From Candidatus Binatia bacterium (GTDB taxonomy: Bacteria; Desulfobacterota; Binatia; UBA9968; JAJDTQ01), in NCBI GenBank assembly GCA_963666515.2, contig OY762897.2:3040001-3104000 (forward strand): DNA of 64,000 nucleotides. Reading direction: 5' to 3'. Below, in pieces: positions 5,663-15,319 of the stretch (positions within the stretch are counted from its first letter, which is position 1; each line of letters begins with the position of its first letter). The translations under genes were made by a program, and so were the position numbers. Below the pieces are notes generated by a model. That model saw only the letters and a list, made by a program, of their open reading frames with translations, ran no database searches and had not been told where the DNA came from.

Positions 5663-6244
5663 ATGCGGCGCGGTTTCAAGTCATGGTGCGAAAACACCGC
5701 TGCCGAGTATAGGTTGCACTTGGGGCTGAGCGGAGACGCCCCGCTTGATCCTCGTGCCCTTGCTGACTACCTCGGGGTCCAGGTCTGGACGCCACGCGAC
5801 GTAACCGGACTCTCGGACGAGAGCATCAAGCAGCTGACGGAAATCGATCCCAGTAGCTGGTCCGCCGTGACGATCGCCTCGAACGGCCAATACCTCGTGA
5901 TCCTCAACTCCGCGCATGCACGTACCCGGCAGCAAAGCAGCCTTGCGCACGAACTCGCCCACCTCATATTGAACCATCGTCCCGCTCGTACCACCGTCTC
6001 TGACGAGGGGTACTTATTCAGTGACCGCTATGACGCGGAGCAGGAAGAGGAGGCCAACTGGCTCGCTGGTGCGCTACTGCTGCCGAGGGAAGGGTTGTTA
6101 GACGTCTATCGACGAACGCGGTCATCAGCGGTGATCGCGAAGGAATTTGGGGTCAGCACCAAGCTGGTCGACTGGCGCCTGCGCATGACGGGCATTCTCA
6201 TGCAGGTTAAACGCGGCGCTCAGTGGCGCCGGCGTACTGGTTGA
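5663..6244 (+). CDS. ImmA/IrrE-family Zn metallopeptidase (CapP-like)
   Basis: RQQSSLAHELAH (HExxH), EEEANWLAGALLLP and a C-terminal HTH-like segment. Confidence 0.9.
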   Translation: MRRGFKSWCENTAAEYRLHLGLSGDAPLDPRALADYLGVQVWTPRDVTGLSDESIKQLTEIDPSSWSAVTIASNGQYLVILNSAHARTRQQSSLAHELAHLILNHRPARTTVSDEGYLFSDRYDAEQEEEANWLAGALLLPREGLLDVYRRTRSSAVIAKEFGVSTKLVDWRLRMTGILMQVKRGAQWRRRTG

Positions 6245-6536
6245 ACATACAGCCCCCGCCTTGCCATCCGTGGTAGTCCAGGATATCGACGTCATCCGCT
6301 CGGCGATACCGCCATTCCTGGTGCCCCCGGCGGATGGCATCCCGGCACGCATCGCTTATCCTCGCTTCGAATTGTCCCCAGGCCAGGACAAAGTATGCTT
6401 GTTCGTTGAGCCTCTGTTGGCGTGCGACGCTGTCGCGATCCTCGGTCTCACTGGCAGCATCGTACCGGTCGCGTAAGCCTTCAAGATAGTTGTCGACCTG
6501 TTGGTACAGGGCTGCGATGGCACCGAGGTCGCTCAT
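6207..6536 (-). CDS. Hypothetical protein, possibly a truncated HEPN-like protein
   Basis: ATG 6536 overlaps the upstream stop (ATGA). Helix AYFVLAWGQFEARI resembles HEPN N-terminal helices. The 3' part overlaps the peptidase gene and looks junctional. Confidence 0.4.
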   Translation of the reverse strand: MSDLGAIAALYQQVDNYLEGLRDRYDAASETEDRDSVARQQRLNEQAYFVLAWGQFEARISDACRDAIRRGHQEWRYRRADDVDILDYHGWQGGGCMFNQYAGATERRV

Positions 6537-6970
6537 CGAAGGACGCGCCTCAACCAGTCTTCGGTGACCGCCTCCCGGTCGCATCGCCGTTCGGCAGGAG
6601 CCACCTGCCAATCCGGCGCTTCGAAATTCTCCGACATGTCGACGATGAGGTAGCGCCGACCGTCCCGCTTCAGATCGATACGGCCATTGCCGCCGATGAT
6701 CCATAGCCCACGCGGCTCCAGTCTGGCCGCGTCGTCTCCCTGCCCAAGCAGCATGAGCGTCGGAATCTCTATTCGTTCAACGCCGAACTTCCGCATGAGC
6801 TCTTCTTGCATGAGTATGGGCTCACCCTCGCAGGTTCGCCAACCGTCCGGCAACCAGCCGCCGATCGTGGCGTAGAGGTCTTTCACGCGCCTCGCCCAGT
6901 CATCCACGCGTCGCTTGATGTGCTCCGCGTCAATTGTTTCGCTTGTAACGTCTTCGAGAACCGTCCCCAT
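6533..6970 (-). CDS. Hypothetical protein
   Basis: 145-aa ORF with globular composition (IIGGNGRIDL), coupled to the downstream ORF. Confidence 0.65.
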   Translation of the reverse strand: MGTVLEDVTSETIDAEHIKRRVDDWARRVKDLYATIGGWLPDGWRTCEGEPILMQEELMRKFGVERIEIPTLMLLGQGDDAARLEPRGLWIIGGNGRIDLKRDGRRYLIVDMSENFEAPDWQVAPAERRCDREAVTEDWLRRVLR

Positions 6971-6995
6971 CGAACCGTTCCCCCTTCCCGTTTGG

Positions 6996-8360
6996 TCAGG
7001 ATGTCTCCGAGCAGTTCAGAACTTCACAAAGTTCCCGAATGCTTTCCAGGCCATCCAGCCCGCCAATGAGGTCGGCGACTTGCCGGCTCCGCTTCAGGTC
7101 CAGCGCCCTGGCGGCGCAGGCATCGAACTTCTCGCGCAGTTCCGCCGGGGTCAGGGGCTTTTCGGGCCGGCCCCGTGAGTGGTCCACCCGTCGGCGCAGT
7201 TCGCCGCCGTCCTTGAGACGGACCGTCACGTCGGCGGGACGGGCGCCGTCCGCGGTTTCCACGAGGCCGGTATCCAGCTCCATGACGATGGTTTCCGCGA
7301 TGCGCCGGACCGCGGGGTCCGCCGCGGCCTCGTCCGTGAACGTATCCAGCACCAGCGCCCCGTCCACGAGCGCCCTCGCCAGGATGTAGGGCATGCTGAA
7401 CTTGGACTCTATGCCGTTGGCCGGCAGCGCGTTCATGATCCGGTCGAAGACCTGCGAGGTCACCCCCACCCGCATGGAATCCACCTGGTCCGGCCGAAGA
7501 CCTTCCTGACGCAGCTCCAGCACGGCGTCCACGGCGGAGTGGGTCAGGCCGCCGCAGGGATACGGCTTGACGCTGACCCCGATGGCCGTCAAGTCGAAGG
7601 TGCTGCCGAGGTCCTCGAACGGCGTCGCGTCGCATTCGAGCCCGCGGCCGAAGCAGTCGAACAGCCCCTTCCCTTCCTCCAGCGCCGCCGGACTGGAAGT
7701 GAAGCCTTGTGCGGCCAGGCGCGCCGCCACCACCCCGTTCTGGGCCGCCAGGCCCGAGTGCAGCGGCTTGGTCATGGTGGCGAAGTTCCACACCATGCCC
7801 GATGCCATCGAAGCGGCGATGCCCAGAGCGTTGCGGGTGGCGCCGGCGTCAAGACCCGCCAGCCGTGCGCAGCAGGCCGCGGCGCCCACCGTTCCGAAGC
7901 TCGATGTCGCGTGCCAGTGGCCATGAGTGGAGAGCTGCGGCATGGAACGGGCCAGCCGGGAAACCACCTCGAAGCCGGCCACGTAGGCGGCGAGGACGTT
8001 CCTGCCGCTTGCGCCTGTCGCTTCTCCCATGGTCAGCACCGCCGGGATCAGGCCGGCGGTGGGTTGACCCATGAGATAGCTGTGATCGAAGTCCAAGGCG
8101 TGGGCCGAGGTGCCGTTGCACAGCGCCGCCAACGTGGTCGAGGTCTTGAATCCCTGTCCGATGACCGTGGCCTCCGCGGCTCGGGATTCCTGCTGCGCCA
8201 GCGCGGCGCAGATCCGTGCGCTGTCCTCGTCCGAGCCCGCCAGCGCGACGCCGACGCAGTCGAGGACCGCCGCCTTGGCGGCCTCGACCACATCCGGCGG
8301 GAGCTTGTCGAAGTCGTTGCCGACGACGAATTCCGAAACCTTCTCTGCAAGCCCTGCCAT
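6996..8360 (-). CDS. MmgE/PrpD family protein
   Basis: NGTSAHALDFD, GHWHATS, TKPLHSG, KPYPCGGLTH and KFSMPY motifs; AAAGGA RBS. Confidence 0.92.
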   Translation of the reverse strand: MAGLAEKVSEFVVGNDFDKLPPDVVEAAKAAVLDCVGVALAGSDEDSARICAALAQQESRAAEATVIGQGFKTSTTLAALCNGTSAHALDFDHSYLMGQPTAGLIPAVLTMGEATGASGRNVLAAYVAGFEVVSRLARSMPQLSTHGHWHATSSFGTVGAAACCARLAGLDAGATRNALGIAASMASGMVWNFATMTKPLHSGLAAQNGVVAARLAAQGFTSSPAALEEGKGLFDCFGRGLECDATPFEDLGSTFDLTAIGVSVKPYPCGGLTHSAVDAVLELRQEGLRPDQVDSMRVGVTSQVFDRIMNALPANGIESKFSMPYILARALVDGALVLDTFTDEAAADPAVRRIAETIVMELDTGLVETADGARPADVTVRLKDGGELRRRVDHSRGRPEKPLTPAELREKFDACAARALDLKRSRQVADLIGGLDGLESIRELCEVLNCSETS

Positions 8361-8737: not shown

Positions 8738-9697
8738 CTATCCGCTCTGCCCCGGCTCCTGGTTGCCGCGCCTCGCGGTGTGGCCCAGCACCGTGGTGGC
8801 GGCGCCGATCATGGAGGTGAGGTCGCTCAGGTTGGCGGGGACGATGAGGGTGTTGCCTTCCTTGGCGAGGTTGCCGAAGCGCTCCAGGTAGTTCTCGGCG
8901 ACGCGAAGCTGCATGGCCTTGTCACCGCCTTCCGAGTCCAGCGCCTCCGCCACCTTCTTGAGCCCTTCGGCGGTCGCTCCGGCCACCGCGAGAATGGCCG
9001 CGGCCTCGCCTTCGGCCTCGTTGATCTGCCGCTGCTTGGCGGCCTCCGAAGCCTTGATGACCTGCTGCTTCTCGCCTTCGGCCTCGTTGATCTTGGCGTC
9101 GCGTTCGCCCTCGGACGACAGCACGGTGGCGCGCTTCTCCCGCTCCGCCCGCATCTGTTTCTCCATGGCCGACAACACGTCCGACGGCGGATTGATGTTC
9201 TTGATCTCGTAGCGCAGCACCTTGACGCCCCACGGATCGGACGCCTTGTCCAACTCCTCGACGACGCTCTGGTTGATGTGGCCTCGCTCCTCGAAGGTCC
9301 GGTCCAGCTCGATCTTGCCGATCTCGCTGCGCAGCGTGGTCTGGGCGAGCTGGGAGATGGCGAACACGTAGTTGCCGATGCCGTAGGACGCCCTTTCCGG
9401 GTCCACCACCTGGAGGTAAAGCACGCCGTCCACCCCCACCTGGACGTTGTCCGAGGTGATGCAGACCTGTTCCTCGATGTCCATGGCGTGCTCCTTGAGG
9501 CTGTGCCGGTAGGCCACCCGCTCCAGGAACGGCACCAGGATGTTGAATCCCGGCTTGAGCGTGCGCGAGTACTTGCCGAGGTTCTCGATGACGTAGGCGT
9601 TCTGCTGAGGCACCACCACTGCGGTCTTGATGAGAACGATGAGCACGACGAGGGCGATGACGCCCGCGGTGATCAGGAAACCCAGATTCGCATCCAT
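8738..9697 (-). CDS. SPFH/stomatin (QmcA/paraslipin-like) membrane protein
   Basis: N-terminal TM helix; ITSDNVQVGVDG, QLAQTTLRSEIG, WGVKVLRYEIKNI and QMRAEREKRA motifs. Confidence 0.93.
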   Translation of the reverse strand: MDANLGFLITAGVIALVVLIVLIKTAVVVPQQNAYVIENLGKYSRTLKPGFNILVPFLERVAYRHSLKEHAMDIEEQVCITSDNVQVGVDGVLYLQVVDPERASYGIGNYVFAISQLAQTTLRSEIGKIELDRTFEERGHINQSVVEELDKASDPWGVKVLRYEIKNINPPSDVLSAMEKQMRAEREKRATVLSSEGERDAKINEAEGEKQQVIKASEAAKQRQINEAEGEAAAILAVAGATAEGLKKVAEALDSEGGDKAMQLRVAENYLERFGNLAKEGNTLIVPANLSDLTSMIGAATTVLGHTARRGNQEPGQSG

Positions 9698-10165
9698 TTA
9701 CTTGCCCCTTTCGGATTCGTTCACGATGTCGTCCGCCAAGCCCTCAATGGAAAGGTTCACGCTGTCCCGTCCCACCACCCGCGCACGGGCGCCCGCGGTG
9801 ATCGGCGCCGTGCCCACGTTGACCGCGGTCCATTGCGTCCCTTGCAGGATGACCCGGGTCTCTCCGCCGCGCGGCACGTCTTCACCGACCGATACGATCC
9901 GTCCGGCCACCTTGTACTCGAAACCCGGGAGCCCGCCGCGAATCCGGTCGTAGAGCCTCCCCCGGAACAGCACCATGGACGCGACCGCGAGAACCGCGAA
10001 GGCCAACAATTGACCCCACACGGGCAGCTCCACTCCAGCCAGCCCGATGATCCCCACGCAGACCGCGGCGGCGCCGACGAAGATAAGATAGAACGCGGCG
10101 TCGACCGCGGTCAGCTCCAGCCCCATCAAGATGATACCGATGCTCACCCAACCCCACCAAGGCAT
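9698..10165 (-). CDS. NfeD family protein (YbbJ-like)
   Basis: Three hydrophobic helices plus a C-terminal OB-like domain (GTQWTA); adjacent to SPFH, the canonical pair. Confidence 0.9.
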   Translation of the reverse strand: MPWWGWVSIGIILMGLELTAVDAAFYLIFVGAAAVCVGIIGLAGVELPVWGQLLAFAVLAVASMVLFRGRLYDRIRGGLPGFEYKVAGRIVSVGEDVPRGGETRVILQGTQWTAVNVGTAPITAGARARVVGRDSVNLSIEGLADDIVNESERGK

Positions 10166-10315
10166 GCCCCTGCTCCTTCAACTTTGGACCGCCGGCTTCC
10201 TCACCGGTTGCTTCAATGACCCGCCATGACGGTTTCCGCCGGTATTGGTTTACCCGGCCGGTACGAGTATGCTGAATTACACGGGCTGGATCAATCCCGC
10301 CAAGGAGGTGCCGCC

Positions 10316-11086
10316 GTGACCTCGCCGGATCAATTCATCGTCGAACTGTGGGAGTACGCAAACCAGGTGCCAATGGTGGAGCACCCCTGGTTCAAGGGCA
10401 TCGTCGACCACCGCTGGAGCCGGGAACAGATCGTCCTGGGCGAGGTGCAGCACTATCTCCGGGTGCGCACCAACCCCATCTACTTCGGCTACATGGCGGT
10501 CAACGCGGTGGCGAACCGGGAACAGGGGCTGGCGGACGTGGTGCTGGAGAACTTCATGGAAGAGCTGTCGGGCGACCGCAGCCACGTGGACATCATGTAC
10601 CAGTTTCTGGAAGAAGCCGGGATCTCGCGCGAGGATGCGGACAATGCCGAGCCCACGCCCGGCACGCTGGCGGCCATCGAGATGATCATCGGCTGCTGCC
10701 AGCGAAGGTCGGCGCTGGAAGGCGTGGCCATGCTCGCCTTCGTCGAGAGCCAGCACGGCGGGCCCGACGGCGCGGCCGCGCGGGTCTACAAGGAACTGGT
10801 GGGGCACTACGGCTTCTCGGAACGGCAGGTGGAAACGTACCGCATTCACGCGGAACAGGACGTGGGCCACGGCTCCCGGCAGATCGACACCCTCCGCCGG
10901 GCCGCCGCCGATCCCGAAACCCGCGAAAAGATCCGCGGCGCCGTGAAGCTCGGCATCACCGCCTTCACCCTGGAGTGGGACGGCCACGTGCAGGCCATGA
11001 CCGGCCGGCGGGACTTCTGGCCCGGGGTCCGGCCCTTCGACCCGCGTCAGGCCGAGACGAGCCTGCCGGAGACGCGGCAGGCGTAA
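10316..11086 (+). CDS. TenA/PqqC/CADD-like heme-oxygenase-fold di-iron enzyme
   Basis: HPWF, ENFMEE...SH, VESQ and IHAEQDVGH iron-ligand pattern; AAGGAGG RBS before GTG 10316. Confidence 0.8.
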   Translation: MTSPDQFIVELWEYANQVPMVEHPWFKGIVDHRWSREQIVLGEVQHYLRVRTNPIYFGYMAVNAVANREQGLADVVLENFMEELSGDRSHVDIMYQFLEEAGISREDADNAEPTPGTLAAIEMIIGCCQRRSALEGVAMLAFVESQHGGPDGAAARVYKELVGHYGFSERQVETYRIHAEQDVGHGSRQIDTLRRAAADPETREKIRGAVKLGITAFTLEWDGHVQAMTGRRDFWPGVRPFDPRQAETSLPETRQA

Positions 11087-11160
11087 GAAGCCCGCACCCC
11101 GGCGCCGGGGCAACGATGGCGCCCGACGTGACGGTGCGATCGTCCGGCCGGGGGCCGTCT

Positions 11161-11206
11161 GCATACCCGGCAATGAACCCCGCAGGGGCGACCCACGATC
11201 GCCCTA
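11161..11206. repeat. GTAG-family REP-like element (degenerate copy)
   Basis: catacccggcaatgaaccccgcaggggcgacccacgatcgccct closely matches 28518-28563. Confidence 0.7.
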
Positions 11207-11419
11207 GAACGGCCAGTCGTCCGGCAGCGGCGCGCGCAGCTTCTGGTACTCGGGGTCCTCGCCGCAGGTCTCACCGACGCGTTTCAGCGTCGCGACGAGG
11301 TCGTCGAGTTCCATGTCAAGGGTGTTGGAGACCATACCCGCGGTCTCTTCGAAGCCGAGGCCTCAATTGCCGTATCAGCCACCCATGCGCTTGAAGATGT
11401 ACTTCTCCCGTTCGGTCAT
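11204..11419 (-). CDS. Putative 71-aa double-selenocysteine microprotein (U15, U19)
   Basis: Manual read: GGAGGA RBS, then MTEREKYIFKRMGG*YGN*GLGFEETAGMVSNTLDMELDDLVATLKRVGETCGEDPEYQKLRAPLPDDWPF-TAG. Both internal stops are TGA (11375-77, 11363-65). A SECIS-like hairpin follows. Confidence 0.72.
11328..11347 (-). promoter_or_regulatory. Candidate bacterial SECIS hairpin
   Basis: mRNA GAGACC-GCGGGUAU-GGUCUC: a 6-bp stem with a G-initiated loop 21 nt after the second UGA and 33 nt after the first. Confidence 0.6.
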
Positions 11420-11474
11420 GCTTTCCTCCGGGCACTTACCAAGTGCGTTCGAGCGTCATTTTTGACGTCAACCG

Positions 11475-11897
11475 TCAGGCCATCGACGCCTTCTCTCGAC
11501 TTCCGGGCTCTGAGAACCCCACACGCTGAACCGTCACGAGTTCCGTGGTCGCCGCGGGCGACCCGTCCGCCCCGAAACGCACGGTCATGCGCACCAGGAT
11601 CCGCCAATGGATCTTCCGCCATTCGACGGTGGAGATCAAGAAGGTATTCTCCACTACCTCGCCGGCCCGGCCACGGCAGGCAACCACGGCCTCCAGGTCC
11701 GTGCTGGCGGACGGCGCGACTCGGACGTCCGCAAGCTCCCGCAGGCCGCTACGGAACCGCCCGTGCGGGAACCGCGCGTCCAGAAACCGCATGTCGGATG
11801 CGGTGAGGTTGTCGATGCGCCAGGCCACGCGCCAATCCTCGCCGCACCGGACGCAGGATATCTGCGTCGCCCGGACCCGCGGCTCTTCCACTTTCAA
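11475..11897 (-). CDS. Hypothetical protein coupled to UbiD
   Basis: TTG start overlaps the UbiD stop (TTGA) with GGAGG upstream; beta-rich sequence (FPHGRFRS). Confidence 0.65.
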   Translation of the reverse strand: MKVEEPRVRATQISCVRCGEDWRVAWRIDNLTASDMRFLDARFPHGRFRSGLRELADVRVAPSASTDLEAVVACRGRAGEVVENTFLISTVEWRKIHWRILVRMTVRFGADGSPAATTELVTVQRVGFSEPGSREKASMA

Positions 11898-13258
11898 TCC
11901 TCCGCGCGCTTCGGACGGTACTCGGCCGCGGCGATGCGGTCGGGGAACTCGATGTCCTCGTTACGGCAGGCGTCGATGATGAGCTTCGAGCCCCAGTCCT
12001 TGCCCGGATGCACCGGATCCAGACGGCTGCCCTTGACGCGGTCGATGATGGAGATGTCGGTGGCGGCGTCCACCCGGGTGGCAACGGCCCACAGCACCTC
12101 TTCCTCGTCGTACACATCGATGTCGGCGTCCACGACGACGACGTGCTTCAGCAACTCCGAGCCCGTGAACGCGGCCATGGCCGCCAGCTTGGCTTCGCCC
12201 TCGCAACGCTTGTCGATGCTGATGTAGCAGTGGAAACGGCCGGCGCCGCTCAGGGGCAGGCACACCGAACGCACCGTGGGCACCACCGCCTGGACCTTGC
12301 GGTAGATGCTGCCTTCCTTGGGCACGGCGCCCAGCAGGCGGTGGTCCCGGTGGCCCGCCAGGATGTCCATGCACCAGGCGTCGCGGCGGTGGGTGATGGC
12401 GGTGACCTCCACCACCGGCGATTCCCCCGCGGGACCGTACAGACCGGTGAAGTCTCCGAAGGGTCCCTCCACCTCCCGCTGGTGCGGCAGCACCCAGCCC
12501 TCGATGACCATCTCGGCGTCCGCGGGCACCAGCAATTCGTCGCCGAAGGTCTCGGACGGCACCAGCCGCAACGGCTCGCCCATCAACCCGCCGATGCTCT
12601 CGTACTCGTCGTCGGCGATGCCGTTCAGGATGCAGTTGCCGAGGTAGTAGGCCGGATGGTGGCCGACGACGCAGGCCACCGGCAGCGCCTCGCCGCGCTC
12701 CTCCGCGCGCATGAAGTAGTCCCAGAGATGCCGGCGCTCGAAGAACATGACGAGGTGGTTGGGGTCGCGCACGTAGCACCGGTGGAACGAGGAGTTGTAG
12801 ACGCCGGTGTCCGGGTCCCTGGCGCACCAGGTCATGGTCAGGTAGGGGCCGAGATCAGCCACGTGATGGGTCAGCACCGGCAGAAAGTGTAGGTTAGGGT
12901 CCATCCTGACCTGCTTGACCGGCGCGTCCGCGGCGTCCACCACCACGGGTTTTTCCCGCCGCGCCTCCCGGGCCTGGAACTCCAGCATCAGCTCCCGCCC
13001 GGCCTGCTCCGGCGGCAGGTCGAGCGCCACCGCGCAGGCCGCGCGCGACGCGAACACGTTCATCAGCAGAGGGAACTCCGAGGGCTCGCCGCTCAGGTTG
13101 TCGATGTTGGAGAAGAGCACCAGCGGCTCCTGTTTCCGCTTCTCCAGGTCGGCGATCATGGCGCACACTTCCAGGTTGATGTCGTGCTTGTCCGTGACCT
13201 CCAGCAGGCGCTCGGGGGCAAGGCGCCTGACGGACTCGACGTAGCTTCTCAGGTCCAT
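11894..13258 (-). CDS. UbiD-family (prFMN-dependent) decarboxylase
   Basis: MDLRSYVE start; YNSSFHR, VPADAEMVIEG, EGPFGDFTG, KHVVVVDADID and WAVATR motifs. The ORF-track upstream extension is REP-derived. Confidence 0.93.
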   Translation of the reverse strand: MDLRSYVESVRRLAPERLLEVTDKHDINLEVCAMIADLEKRKQEPLVLFSNIDNLSGEPSEFPLLMNVFASRAACAVALDLPPEQAGRELMLEFQAREARREKPVVVDAADAPVKQVRMDPNLHFLPVLTHHVADLGPYLTMTWCARDPDTGVYNSSFHRCYVRDPNHLVMFFERRHLWDYFMRAEERGEALPVACVVGHHPAYYLGNCILNGIADDEYESIGGLMGEPLRLVPSETFGDELLVPADAEMVIEGWVLPHQREVEGPFGDFTGLYGPAGESPVVEVTAITHRRDAWCMDILAGHRDHRLLGAVPKEGSIYRKVQAVVPTVRSVCLPLSGAGRFHCYISIDKRCEGEAKLAAMAAFTGSELLKHVVVVDADIDVYDEEEVLWAVATRVDAATDISIIDRVKGSRLDPVHPGKDWGSKLIIDACRNEDIEFPDRIAAAEYRPKRAED

Positions 13259-13331
13259 CGCCAGAGTGTACGGTCCGGCAACGTGCCCGTCAACGTCGAG
13301 CGGGCGAGGACCGGATTCCGGCGCCCCTTCT

Positions 13332-13415
13332 CTGGACCCCGGATCAAGTCCGGGGTGACGGTGCGGGAGTTCGGGGTGACGCTTTCCGTCATTCCGGGCT
13401 TGACCCGGAATCCAG
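13332..13415. repeat. Pair of CGTC-family REP palindromes in inverted orientation
   Basis: ctggaccccggatcaagtccggggtgacg ... cgtcattccgggcttgacccggaatccag; the same units recur at 27182 and 35451-35519. Confidence 0.85.
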
Positions 13416-13504
13416 GTGGGGCGGTCCGTTGCAATCGCTCCAGGAAAGGAACAGTCTTGAGTTTCGCCCCTCCATCCGACCAGAGGGATTAGAGCTTCGG
13501 CCCC

Positions 13505-14473
13505 ATGAGCACGACCACTAACGATCGGAACCACACGATCCACCTGACCGTCCCGCAAATGCTCCACGGTAAACGGCTGGATGCTACCCTCGCCGCACTG
13601 TTGCCCGACTACTCACGATCGAGGCTCCAGCGGCTGGTCCGGGAGGGGTACGTCCGGATCGACGGCCGTGCGCCGGAGTGCTCCGACAAGGTCGCGGCCG
13701 GAGCCTCTATTGAGCTGGAGTTGCCGGAGCCCGCCGAGGTCTCCTGGAAGGCGCAGCCCATCCCGCTTGAAATCATCCATGAAGACGAAGCCCTGCTGGT
13801 GATCAACAAGCCACCGGGCATGGTGGTCCATCCCGGCGCGGGCAATCCCGAGGGCACGCTGCTGAACGCGGTCATGCACCACGCGCCGGCGCTCGAGGCC
13901 GTCCCCAGGGCCGGCATCGTCCACCGGCTCGACAAGGACACATCGGGCCTGCTGGTGGTGGCCAAGACCGATGTCGTGCGGCTTAGGCTGGTGCGGGAGC
14001 TGCAGGCGCGGCGCATCAAGCGGGAATACCTGGCGCTGGTGCGCGGCGTCCTCCGCGCCGGCGGCTCCGTCACCGCCCCCATCGGACGGCACCCGGTTCA
14101 CCGCACCCGCATGTCGGTGCAACGGCGCGGCAAGGAGGCCACCAGCCACTACAGCGTGAAGGCGGCGTACCGGAACCACACCATGCTGAGGGTCCGGCTG
14201 GAATCCGGACGCACCCACCAGATCCGGGTGCACATGGCGCATATCGGACACCCCGTGGTGGGCGATCCGGTGTACGGCGGCCGGAGCGCCGCCGGCAAGG
14301 GTCAGGGGACAAGGCTCACGGAGTCGTTGCGCGGCTTCCGGCGTCAGGCGCTGCACGCCGAGCGGCTGGGGCTGAGCCACCCCGAGACCGGCGAGTCCAT
14401 GAAATGGACGGCGCCCATGCCTCCGGACATGCGGGCGCTCGTGGAGGCGCTCGCGGAAGACGCGCGTTCATGA
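13505..14473 (+). CDS. rluD: 23S rRNA pseudouridine synthase RluD
   Basis: S4 domain (RLDATLA..YSRSRLQ), NKPPGMVVHPGAG, GIVHRLDKDTSG, GRTHQIRVH and RQALHA motifs. Confidence 0.92.
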   Translation: MSTTTNDRNHTIHLTVPQMLHGKRLDATLAALLPDYSRSRLQRLVREGYVRIDGRAPECSDKVAAGASIELELPEPAEVSWKAQPIPLEIIHEDEALLVINKPPGMVVHPGAGNPEGTLLNAVMHHAPALEAVPRAGIVHRLDKDTSGLLVVAKTDVVRLRLVRELQARRIKREYLALVRGVLRAGGSVTAPIGRHPVHRTRMSVQRRGKEATSHYSVKAAYRNHTMLRVRLESGRTHQIRVHMAHIGHPVVGDPVYGGRSAAGKGQGTRLTESLRGFRRQALHAERLGLSHPETGESMKWTAPMPPDMRALVEALAEDARS

Positions 14474-14614: not shown

Positions 14615-15319
14615 ATGGGTCAACCAGTCAGCGCCTACAACTACGAAACCTTCAACCGATCGGAGAGTTCGGCCAAGGCGGGTGAGTTCGCTGCGCGCCT
14701 GCGTGCGGGCGAGGAGGCGCCCGACTTCAGCCTCCCCACCCTTGACGGCGAGACGGTCCGGCTCTCCGGGTTCAAGGGCAGCAAGCACGTGCTGCTGGAG
14801 TTCGGAAGCATCACCTGACCGCCGTTCGTGGGCGAGGTCTCGCCCCTGAACGAGATGTACCGGACCTATCGGGACAAGGGCTTCGAGTTCCTGACCATCT
14901 ACGTGCGCGAGCCCCATCCGGGAGAGCACTACGGCCCGCACAAGGATTTCGAGCAGAAGGTGGAATACGCCCGCCATTGCCGGGACCAGGACGGCATCGA
15001 GAACCCGCTGCTCGTGGACGACCTCGACGGCACCGTGCACCAGCTCTACGGCGTGCTCCCCAACATGGTCTACATCGTCAGCAAGGAAGGCCGCATCGTC
15101 TACAAGGCCATGTGGACCGACCACGACGAGATCCGGGTGGTGCTGGACAACCTGGTCATGGCCGACGAACTGCGCGCCGAGGGCGTGCGCCTGAAGCCGT
15201 CCCTCACCGAGAAGATCAACTTCATCCCCGCCCAGTACGCCGGCGGCGTCCGCGAGAAGGTCTTCGACCGGGCGGGACCGAAGGCCTGGGAGGACTACCG
15301 GAGCACCTTCGGGGAGTAG
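14615..15319 (+). CDS. Deiodinase-like thioredoxin-fold selenoprotein (Sec68)
   Basis: ORFs 14615..14818 and 14828..15319 are in frame across TGA 14816-18, giving LLEFGSIT-U-PPF..IYVREPHP, the iodothyronine-deiodinase-type FGSxTUPPF motif. AAGGAG RBS. Confidence 0.9.
14824..14851 (+). promoter_or_regulatory. Bacterial SECIS element
   Basis: GGGCGA-GGUC-UCGCCC apical hairpin with its loop 17 nt after the UGA, and a lower GUUC/GAAC stem. Confidence 0.8.

Follow-up and report, generated by a model that had tools for sequence, protein, structure and literature searches.

fdhF is a bacterial selenoprotein gene that carries its selenocysteine insertion sequence (SECIS) hairpin in frame. Small bacterial selenoproteins with two selenocysteine (Sec) residues include the FmdB family (motif UxxU), the "metal-binding protein" family NF041115 (UxxU), and the selenobacteriocin family TIGR04081 (main text of PMC13188914, a review of selenoproteins in prokaryotes from 2026). 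Two closely spaced UGA codons are therefore not unprecedented, and because the Sec residues of those families are only a few positions apart, one downstream element presumably serves both. Analysis of a 64,000-nucleotide stretch of contig OY762897.2 from Candidatus Binatia bacterium (positions 3,040,001 to 3,104,000; here called the window) revealed a minus-strand gene that resembles the families described in PMC13188914 in the small size of its product, in two Sec residues a few positions apart, and in a proposed redox or metal role. It differs from them, as far as they are presented there, in its U-x3-U spacing, in the predicted position of the pair on a helix, and in having no NCBIfam match. 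A first-pass annotation made from the sequence alone had proposed a hidden 71-amino-acid (aa) selenoprotein at this position. Comparison with related sequences indicates that it is very probably a real gene in which both UGAs are decoded as Sec. The best explanation of the locus as a whole, to which we assign a probability of roughly 0.8, is a two-Sec, four-helix selenoprotein with an RNA element inside its coding sequence and a putative partnership with a neighboring enzyme.

Inspection and translation of the minus strand confirmed the GGAGGA motif, the ATG, the 71 codons, and the TAG described previously, with the TGAs at codons 15 and 19 as the sole interruptions of the frame (Table 1). Purine-rich motifs like the GGAGGA ribosome-binding site are also present in same-genus relatives. 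The read-through product, MTEREKYIFKRMGGUYGNUGLGFEETAGMVSNTLDMELDDLVATLKRVGETCGEDPEYQKLRAPLPDDWPF, is acidic (14 D/E versus 8 K/R, counted on the translated sequence). The prediction that standard gene callers would miss the gene was borne out, as 24 of 25 database homologues are a 43-aa C-terminal piece starting with MVSN and the other one is 51 aa long. TGA read-through yields many long open reading frames (ORFs) in this GC-rich stretch; one of them reaches 1742 aa and contains 21 TGAs. Because of these ORFs and an unremarkable single-sequence fold, the window sequence alone does not go beyond chance, and the judgment that the gene is real rests on comparison with other sequences.

A six-frame search was performed in 123 genomes of the order, and its tallies include four unpublished genomes (G051, G054, G073, and G093). 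The small gene was matched in 100 of the 123 genomes, in 48 of the 58 high-quality genomes, and in 22 of the 27 genera. A total of 102 match rows out of 104 show two in-frame TGAs and no more, with identities that span 43 to 97%; the remaining two rows are partial and stop short of codons 15 and 19. From these genomes, 50 loci were fetched, of which 47 are distinct, and all 47 have TGA at both positions. A scan of metagenome contigs gave more than 541 relatives among the matches listed, and the best 80 loci, which were inspected, all have TGA/TGA, with frame, start, and stop maintained. Homologues thus carry TGA or, in the full-length forms described below, Cys/Cys at positions 15 and 19, and never the Trp, Arg, or random residues that the first-pass annotation had named as the mark of a simple pseudogene.

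The frame is also kept on both sides of the UGAs. An ATG or GTG is located 14 or 16 codons ahead of UGA-1 in 49 of the 50 loci (L006 is without one), and the ratio of nonsynonymous to synonymous differences (pN/pS) is 0.475 before the UGAs and 0.495 after them. Since the start codon is retained and the ratio resembles that of the C-terminal part, the region ahead of the UGAs is coding, and the N-terminal codons, whose conservation had been in question, are conserved. The frame ends one residue past a D/E-W-P motif in all genome loci but the frameshifted L048. The terminator of the gene is TGA in 21, TAG in 15, and TAA in 10 of the 47 distinct loci, and as 21 of 47 family members terminate this gene with TGA, the codon has not been reassigned. 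In a phylum sample of 401 genomes, matches comprised the genome of the window itself and one match at E = 0.004, and the family was not found outside the order there. Three copies are possibly damaged, through either assembly errors or decay: in L006 (genome G029), the start codon is missing and the upstream region is replaced by AT-rich sequence; L048 (G120) has a frameshift near the C-terminus; and the match on G056:C559 covers only residues 20 to 70 and has a TAG inside.

A profile built from 22 members matched 125 of 1.84 billion representative proteins. Most of them are 43-aa truncations, and about two dozen are either full length (71 to 73 aa) or lack the N-terminal helix only. All of these full-length or near-full-length homologues have Cys at both Sec positions (CxxxC). 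The joint alignment has nine invariant columns (C15, C19, F23, T26, M29, L45, R63, P67, and P71); Met29, at which the annotated 43-aa piece begins, is internal as well as invariant in the Cys forms, and many Cys forms carry His20. One of them, P0027, shares 52% identity and the DWP ending with the window protein. P0045, P0051, P0103, P0109, and P0116 are, like P0027, non-archaeal. More distant Cys forms were found at 68 loci in species-representative genomes, all of which are archaeal metagenome-assembled genomes (MAGs). The hosts are mostly Thermoplasmata, with some Nitrososphaerales/Thaumarchaeota and Micrarchaeota and one Bathyarchaeota. This archaeal CxxxC family is homologous to the Sec form over its full length (30 to 41% identity) and has the invariant residues and the partner enzyme family in common with it. 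It differs in having Cys for Sec and in its synonymous sites, which are not frozen as they are in the Sec form.

RNAalifold and pair counts revealed two hairpins within the coding sequence, referred to as A and B (Table 1). Hairpin A starts 9 nucleotides (nt) after UGA-1 and holds UGA-2 in its 5' arm; its loop is positioned 15 nt after UGA-1. Hairpin B starts 2 nt past hairpin A. Counted from UGA-2, its stem begins after 15 nt, its loop after 22 nt, and the GGG of the loop after 24 nt; counted from UGA-1, the stem begins after 27 nt and the GGG after 36 nt. The first-pass annotation had described a GAGACC/GGUCUC hairpin with an octaloop that begins with G. The hairpin is present, and its loop has to be redrawn: the base taken as the first of the loop is R (A in 75 and G in 18 of 93 distinct sequences) and pairs with the U opposite, so that the conserved helix has 7 bp and a CGGGNA hexaloop. 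Hairpin A, a second conserved hairpin of the form UGAGGC-NNNN-GCUUCG directly upstream, had been overlooked.

Codons 20 to 31 are frozen at the nucleotide level in the 47 distinct loci, synonymous sites included (GGC in 46, CTC in 39, GGC in 44, TTC in 46, GAG in 47, ACC in 47, RCG in 47, and GTC in 46), and conserved residues flanking this stretch use several codons. Nei-Gojobori proportions were calculated for 990 pairs of Sec-form genes and for 56 distinct archaeal Cys-form genes. In the hairpin zone (codons +5 to +16), the proportion of synonymous differences (pS) was 0.136 in Sec forms versus 0.652 in archaeal Cys forms. The corresponding values were 0.59 and 0.69 in the N-terminal part, 0.55 and 0.59 between the two positions, and 0.57 and 0.70 in the C-terminal part. 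Because synonymous sites are frozen in the Sec forms only, the constraint tracks the decoding of UGA rather than the protein.

Pair counts were made on 93 distinct 75-nt segments from 130 loci. Of the 1209 pair cells of both hairpins, 99.9% pair, versus 28 to 53% when the partners are slid by one to three columns. Pairing is complete in hairpin A (558 of 558 cells; 6 pairs in 93 sequences) and reaches 99.8% in hairpin B. All changes but one are compatible with pairing, the exception being one unpaired cell; they comprise one-sided changes in hairpin A (GC>GU 2, GU>AU 5, and GU>GC 1) and AU>GU 18. Among third-codon positions, the paired columns 24, 30, 39, 42, and 54 are invariant and column 33 changes only from C to U opposite G, while the unpaired columns 36, 48, and 57 vary freely. 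The loop of hairpin A changes both its sequence and the encoded residue (Leu, Val, Ala, Gly, Met, Arg, or Gln) and always stays a CUYG-like or GNRA-like tetraloop (CUCG, GUCG, GCAA, GGAA, GGCA, CUAG, and others). The loop of hairpin B is conserved save for its fifth base. On these comparisons, the two-hairpin structure and selective constraint on that structure can be taken as established.

The genome of the window contains the genes for Sec insertion. selA (517 bits), selB (371 bits), and selD (381 bits) all score above curated cut-offs, and ARAGORN found tRNA-SeC(tca), so that each of the components on which the first-pass annotation had made its proposal depend is present. selD, selB, and selA are positioned side by side outside the window (C1:4043412-4047477 of the same genome; L001, L122, and L130). 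selD itself holds one in-frame TGA (…KAAGUAAKLG…), with a GGUGCAGGUCCUGCACC hairpin about 26 nt downstream. The deiodinase-like Sec gene that had been reported near 14615 exists as well (Table 1), and its hairpin, GGGCGA-GGUC-UCGCCC, starts 11 nt after the UGA. Upstream of it, in the same frame, is a gene that looks like a pseudouridine-synthase type and ends at another TGA. The distance from the UGA to the start of the GGUC loop of the SECIS hairpin is about 33 nt in selD and 18 nt in the deiodinase-like gene. The locus studied here resembles both genes in having an in-frame UGA followed by a G+C-rich hairpin in the coding sequence with GGU in the loop, and it resembles bacterial genes with in-frame SECIS elements in that Cys-bearing homologues exist. 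It differs from the latter in that there are two UGAs, 12 nt apart, and in that the second is inside the stem of an extra conserved hairpin ahead of the SECIS-like one.

Table 1. Positions of the proposed selenoprotein gene, its RNA element, and neighboring features in the window
Feature	Position	Strand	Details	Basis
Two-Sec selenoprotein coding sequence (very probable)	11204..11419	-	ATG 11419-11417, 71 sense codons, TAG 11206-11204	Sequence and translation with TGA as U
UGA-1, predicted Sec	11375..11377	-	Codon 15	TGA in all 47 distinct genome loci and the best 80 metagenome loci; aligns to invariant Cys in Cys forms
UGA-2, predicted Sec	11363..11365	-	Codon 19; first 3 bases of hairpin A	Same counts as UGA-1
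Hairpin A	11350..11365	-	6-bp stem UGAGGC/GCUUCG, variable tetraloop	RNAalifold and pair counts
Hairpin B	11328..11347	-	7-bp stem GAGACCR/UGGUCUC, conserved loop CGGGNA	RNAalifold, pair counts, third-position pattern
GGAGGA ribosome-binding site	11424..11429	-	4 nt ahead of the ATG	Sequence
43-aa ORF from Met29, the piece reported by gene callers	11204..11335	-	Last 43 codons	Standard-code ORF
orf140, upstream gene	11475..11897	-	55 nt ahead of the selenoprotein ATG; predicted beta-sandwich, no known family	
Heme-oxygenase-like dimetal enzyme (predicted)	10226..11086	+	Convergent neighbor; PF14518, PF03070, weak CADD-family match	Family scans
Thioredoxin-fold deiodinase-like gene	UGA 14816-14818, ORF end 15319	+	Motif GSITUPPF	In-frame UGA

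Hairpin B is likely the SelB-binding SECIS. In the reading that we prefer, the two-hairpin element directs decoding, and hairpin B would provide the SelB site for both UGAs, with hairpin A acting as a collapsible spacer: hairpin A would be folded while the ribosome is at UGA-1, which would place hairpin B about 11 nt away, and it would be melted once the ribosome is at UGA-2, which would leave hairpin B 15 nt away. An arrangement of two separate SECIS elements, with hairpin A serving UGA-1 and hairpin B serving UGA-2, would account for the conservation of both hairpins, and the loop distances from the respective UGAs (15 nt and 22 nt) are near the 18 nt of the deiodinase-like gene. Against it, the loop of hairpin A is not conserved in sequence, and its switching between CUCG-like and GNRA-like tetraloops indicates that this hairpin is selected for stability and not for sequence-specific recognition; most hairpin A loops also have no GGU, which is common to hairpin B and the other SECIS loops of the genome. 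Two separate elements are for these reasons considered unlikely. A further reading takes the UGAs as real stops, so that a 43-aa protein, perhaps with a 14-aa leader, is made and the hairpins are regulatory RNA, or so that the locus is a pseudogene. Gene callers do predict the 43-aa ORF, its ATG at codon 29 is invariant, and the case for read-through is comparative. The Cys forms, however, are single polypeptides of 71 to 73 aa, and the 14 to 16 codons ahead of UGA-1 and the three between the UGAs keep the frame and show substitutions of the coding type. A pseudogene would not hold both TGAs across more than 120 distinct sequences with identities down to 43%, and the freezing of synonymous sites is absent from the Cys forms. 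We regard real stops as very remote compared with the decoding of both UGAs as Sec.

Expression signals were sought in contigs from RNA libraries, which represent copies of relatives from four studies at 85 to 99% identity to the locus. A 278-nt contig with a depth of 92.6 (X13) spans 11206-11418, and another (X7) spans 11210-11439. A 415-nt contig (X1) spans 11210-11624 and thus extends into orf140, and a 228-nt contig (X5) spans 11319-11547, over both TGAs. The whole 71-codon frame of close relatives is thus present in RNA libraries, a weak support for transcription that concerns presence and not strand, ends, level, or translation.

To study gene context, 12-kb regions from 20 loci in other genomes of the order were compared together with that of the window, giving 21 regions. 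Only two neighbors are conserved across them. orf140 lies directly upstream on the same strand in all 21 regions, and the gene of a predicted heme-oxygenase-like dimetal enzyme adjoins downstream, in convergent orientation, in 20 of them. Among metagenome loci long enough to show the respective gene, orf140 occurs in 73 of 74 and the enzyme gene in 63 of 66. No Pfam or NCBIfam match was obtained for orf140. Its AlphaFold2 (AF2) model (predicted local distance difference test score [pLDDT], 92) is all-beta, and the fold matches are generic (ApaG, Z 9.7; a TRAP subunit, Z 9.5) and imply no function; the "CVRCG" motif present in the window's copy of orf140 is not a conserved feature. Genome G048 has two near-identical trios of orf140, selenoprotein, and enzyme genes on different contigs (L046 and L047), with an enzyme ORF of 423 aa in both.

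Cross-tabulation of the small gene and the enzyme gene over the 123 genomes revealed both genes in 96, the small gene only in 4, the enzyme gene only in 3, and neither in 20. The seven discordant genomes are fragmented (260 to 850 contigs). Both genes are missing in four same-genus genomes, three of which are 98 to 99% complete (G018, G023, and G031) and one of which is 76% complete (G012). Because related genomes are not independent, this co-occurrence is supportive and does not constitute a statistical test.

In 63 of 65 archaeal loci, the CxxxC gene is directly followed, in the same orientation, by a homologous enzyme gene with an N-terminal zf-C2H2_9 domain, and in 55 of 65 loci a gene of the Ta0938 family (PF11494) comes next, in place of the orf140 found in bacteria. 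The archaeal operon (L054 to L121, around positions 6000-7500) encodes the 71-aa CxxxC protein, a 297-aa zf-C2H2_9 plus TENA/PQQC enzyme, and a TRASH-like protein of the Ta0938 family of roughly 100 aa. A relationship of orf140 to Ta0938 was rejected (hhalign probability, 0.4%).

The enzyme has been classified in the "iron-containing redox enzyme" and TENA-THI4-PQQC families, and its true start is probably near residue 31. Bacterial and archaeal forms are 21 to 24% identical, and Glu, Asp, and His residues are invariant between them, which we take to be ligands of the type found at the dimetal site of the heme-oxygenase-like superfamily. From these residues, the enzyme is predicted to be heme-oxygenase-like dimetal (HDO-like). 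It misses the CADD cut-off of 200 (TIGR04305; the window's enzyme scores 58.5 bits and its archaeal counterpart 27.8 bits), and the cut-off of 240 for the PqqC equivalog TIGR02111 is missed by the archaeal enzyme (14.7 bits), the window's enzyme not being listed. The enzyme is highly conserved, with 1246 proteins matching at E ≤ 1e-10, the best 120 of which are 70 to 89% identical. Source labels read "iron-containing redox enzyme family protein" or "PQQ biosynthesis protein C" (JGI, automatic label). Close homologues (72 to 76% identical) are labeled Chloroflexi/Chloroflexota, Deltaproteobacteria, Candidatus Binatia, and Acidoferrales; either the labeling of these MAGs is inconsistent or the module extends past the order. 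Complex prediction with the window's enzyme and P0027 as a Cys-form stand-in gave a score of 0.00, which counts neither for nor against binding.

A structural model of the small protein was generated with AF2 from 41 aligned homologues (pLDDT, 94.1; predicted template modeling score, 0.79). Its four helices cover residues 3-19, 23-33, 38-52, and 56-62. The two Sec positions, U15 and U19, are separated by one turn where helix 1 ends, and by helical periodicity they should face the invariant T26 and M29 of helix 2. CxxxC metal sites are known from Sco proteins and the CuA centre, in which two Cys residues four positions apart are accompanied by a nearby Met or His. The C/U15 and C/U19 pair, the invariant M29, and the His20 of many Cys forms resemble this arrangement as a lead only, and they differ from it in that no homology was found. 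A sequence profile search with the small protein found no PDB entry below E 0.2, and the weak matches (CapW, IpaD, and others) are due to chance; the best scores of P0088 in the ESM Atlas (0.76) were under the lead threshold.

The best fold matches of the model are helix-turn-helix (HTH) DNA-binding domains, and the two-Sec protein could be a small regulator in which the Sec/Cys pair senses redox state or metal and controls the enzyme gene. Foldseek returned LuxR/GerE-type domains (VpsT, NarL, GerE, and DosR) and MntR with probabilities of 0.57 to 0.97, VIA-align placed MntR on top (Z 6.5) and DesR, sigma region 4, and IdeR next, and two Cys forms have weak sub-threshold NCBIfam matches to sigma factors and the Sta1 regulator. 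The small gene is also the first of the archaeal operon. The likeness to tetra-helical HTH domains (LuxR/GerE, sigma-70 region 4, and the MntR/DtxR N-terminal domain) consists of four short helices, Z values of 5.0 to 6.5, and Foldseek TM values of about 0.55 to 0.6. However, all Foldseek E values are at least 0.53 (0.5 or worse, none ≤ 0.001), and every Z is below 8, a range that the fold tool's own note counts as background where small helical proteins are compared. Neither sequence nor profile comparison gave a significant match, and no Pfam or NCBIfam HTH family reaches its threshold. The protein is acidic, and what is conserved is the Cys/Sec pair and the junction of helices 1 and 2, not the presumed recognition helix. 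On the Foldseek E values and the best Z of 6.5, we do not file the protein as HTH, and a regulatory role appears quite improbable. About equally improbable is a role as substrate of the oxidase, in which Sec/Cys or nearby residues are modified or excised as in a ribosomally synthesized and post-translationally modified peptide (RiPP), or sacrificially (PqqA/PqqC, CADD). The family membership of the neighbor (TENA/THI-4/PQQC and "iron-containing redox enzyme"), its weak CADD match, and the tight linkage of small gene and enzyme in two domains of life would fit such a role, and the main text of PMC13188914 names "selenobacteriocin" (2 Sec) as a family of RiPP precursors that contain Sec. Conservation over the whole length and a compact predicted fold are unlike a leader-plus-core peptide; in addition, both the PqqC and the CADD cut-offs are missed, and no radical-SAM, PqqB/D/E-like, peptidase, or known RiPP maturase genes were found among the conserved neighbors in the 21 bacterial regions and the archaeal loci.

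Rather than as a regulator or a substrate, the Sec pair may be a redox-active selenol/diselenide or soft-metal site that works with the heme-oxygenase-like dimetal enzyme, an assignment that we make tentatively and at somewhat less than even odds. The pair may serve the enzyme as a reductant or as a metal donor. Beside the small gene and the enzyme gene, a metal-binding-type protein (TRASH-like Ta0938, in archaea) or a beta-sandwich protein (orf140, in bacteria) is encoded. The joint proposal, that one SelB hairpin with a collapsible spacer decodes two UGAs and that the helix-borne Sec-x3-Sec is the dedicated redox or metal partner of the enzyme, is doubtful in its entirety. If true, it would describe the first selenoprotein assigned to the heme-oxygenase-like superfamily and a module common to Cys-using archaea.

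Several points weigh against the two-Sec selenoprotein and its association with the enzyme. Selenium in the protein and read-through are concluded from comparison, and the RNA-library contigs are not proof of transcription, as DNA can occur in such libraries. pN/pS near 0.5 represents moderate constraint only. Covariation, which the first-pass annotation had looked to as a check of the hairpin, did not appear: there were 0 two-sided compensatory changes in either hairpin among the 93 sequences, and the stems show so little variation that no covariation score can be given and a shuffle control is uninformative. A strict G-U dinucleotide is not conserved because position 5 of the hairpin B loop varies. 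The single-sequence fold of 57 nt has a z of -1.55, with 18 of 200 shuffles as stable, and Rfam in E-value mode gave three chance-level matches and no SECIS family over 11000-11700. The enzyme link rests on neighborhood and on co-occurrence among related, non-independent genomes, and the bacterial small gene and enzyme gene, being convergent, do not form one operon.

The small protein belongs to no described family among those searched, as the first-pass annotation had supposed. In NCBIfam release 20, the window Sec protein matched 0 families at E ≤ 10, and no Pfam model matched. Ten Cys forms gave no Pfam or NCBIfam match above the cut-off, and TIGR02605, TIGR04081, and NF041115 were not among their matches at E ≤ 1. 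A term search of the main text of PMC13188914 found no U-x3-U family, although the supplements could list one, and "xxxU" occurs in that text only as UxxxxU (TsoB). Literature searches revealed nothing that joins a selenoprotein with Binatia or a selenoprotein with heme oxygenase-like plus diiron; selenocysteine with PqqC gave only unrelated work, and an HDO partner gave nothing relevant. This is a new selenoprotein family with a two-hairpin decoding element and a new enzyme association, and not a new kind of system. A widespread family is now truncated by annotation to a 43-aa "hypothetical protein," and a dedicated small Cys/Sec partner in bacteria and archaea would offer a handle on the reaction of the enzyme. 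The short, mutable two-hairpin element permits a test of SelB/SECIS geometry with two UGAs 12 nt apart, and the comparison of frozen (Sec) with free (Cys) synonymous sites is a clean way to expose RNA structure that overlaps a coding sequence.

Other genes near the module are not part of it. The UbiD-family decarboxylase gene (11894..13567, minus strand) was rejected as a module member, since it is a neighbor only within the genus. It overlaps the start of orf140 by 4 nt, and an N-terminal extension of roughly 100 aa in the listed ORF is probably untranslated. A scan of 10900-13800 for promoters and terminators found nothing resembling a terminator, and its single promoter-like site falls within the UbiD gene. 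A pair of SPFH/Band-7 and NfeD-like genes at 8738-10165 on the minus strand lies beside the module, and these genes too are neighbors within the genus only.

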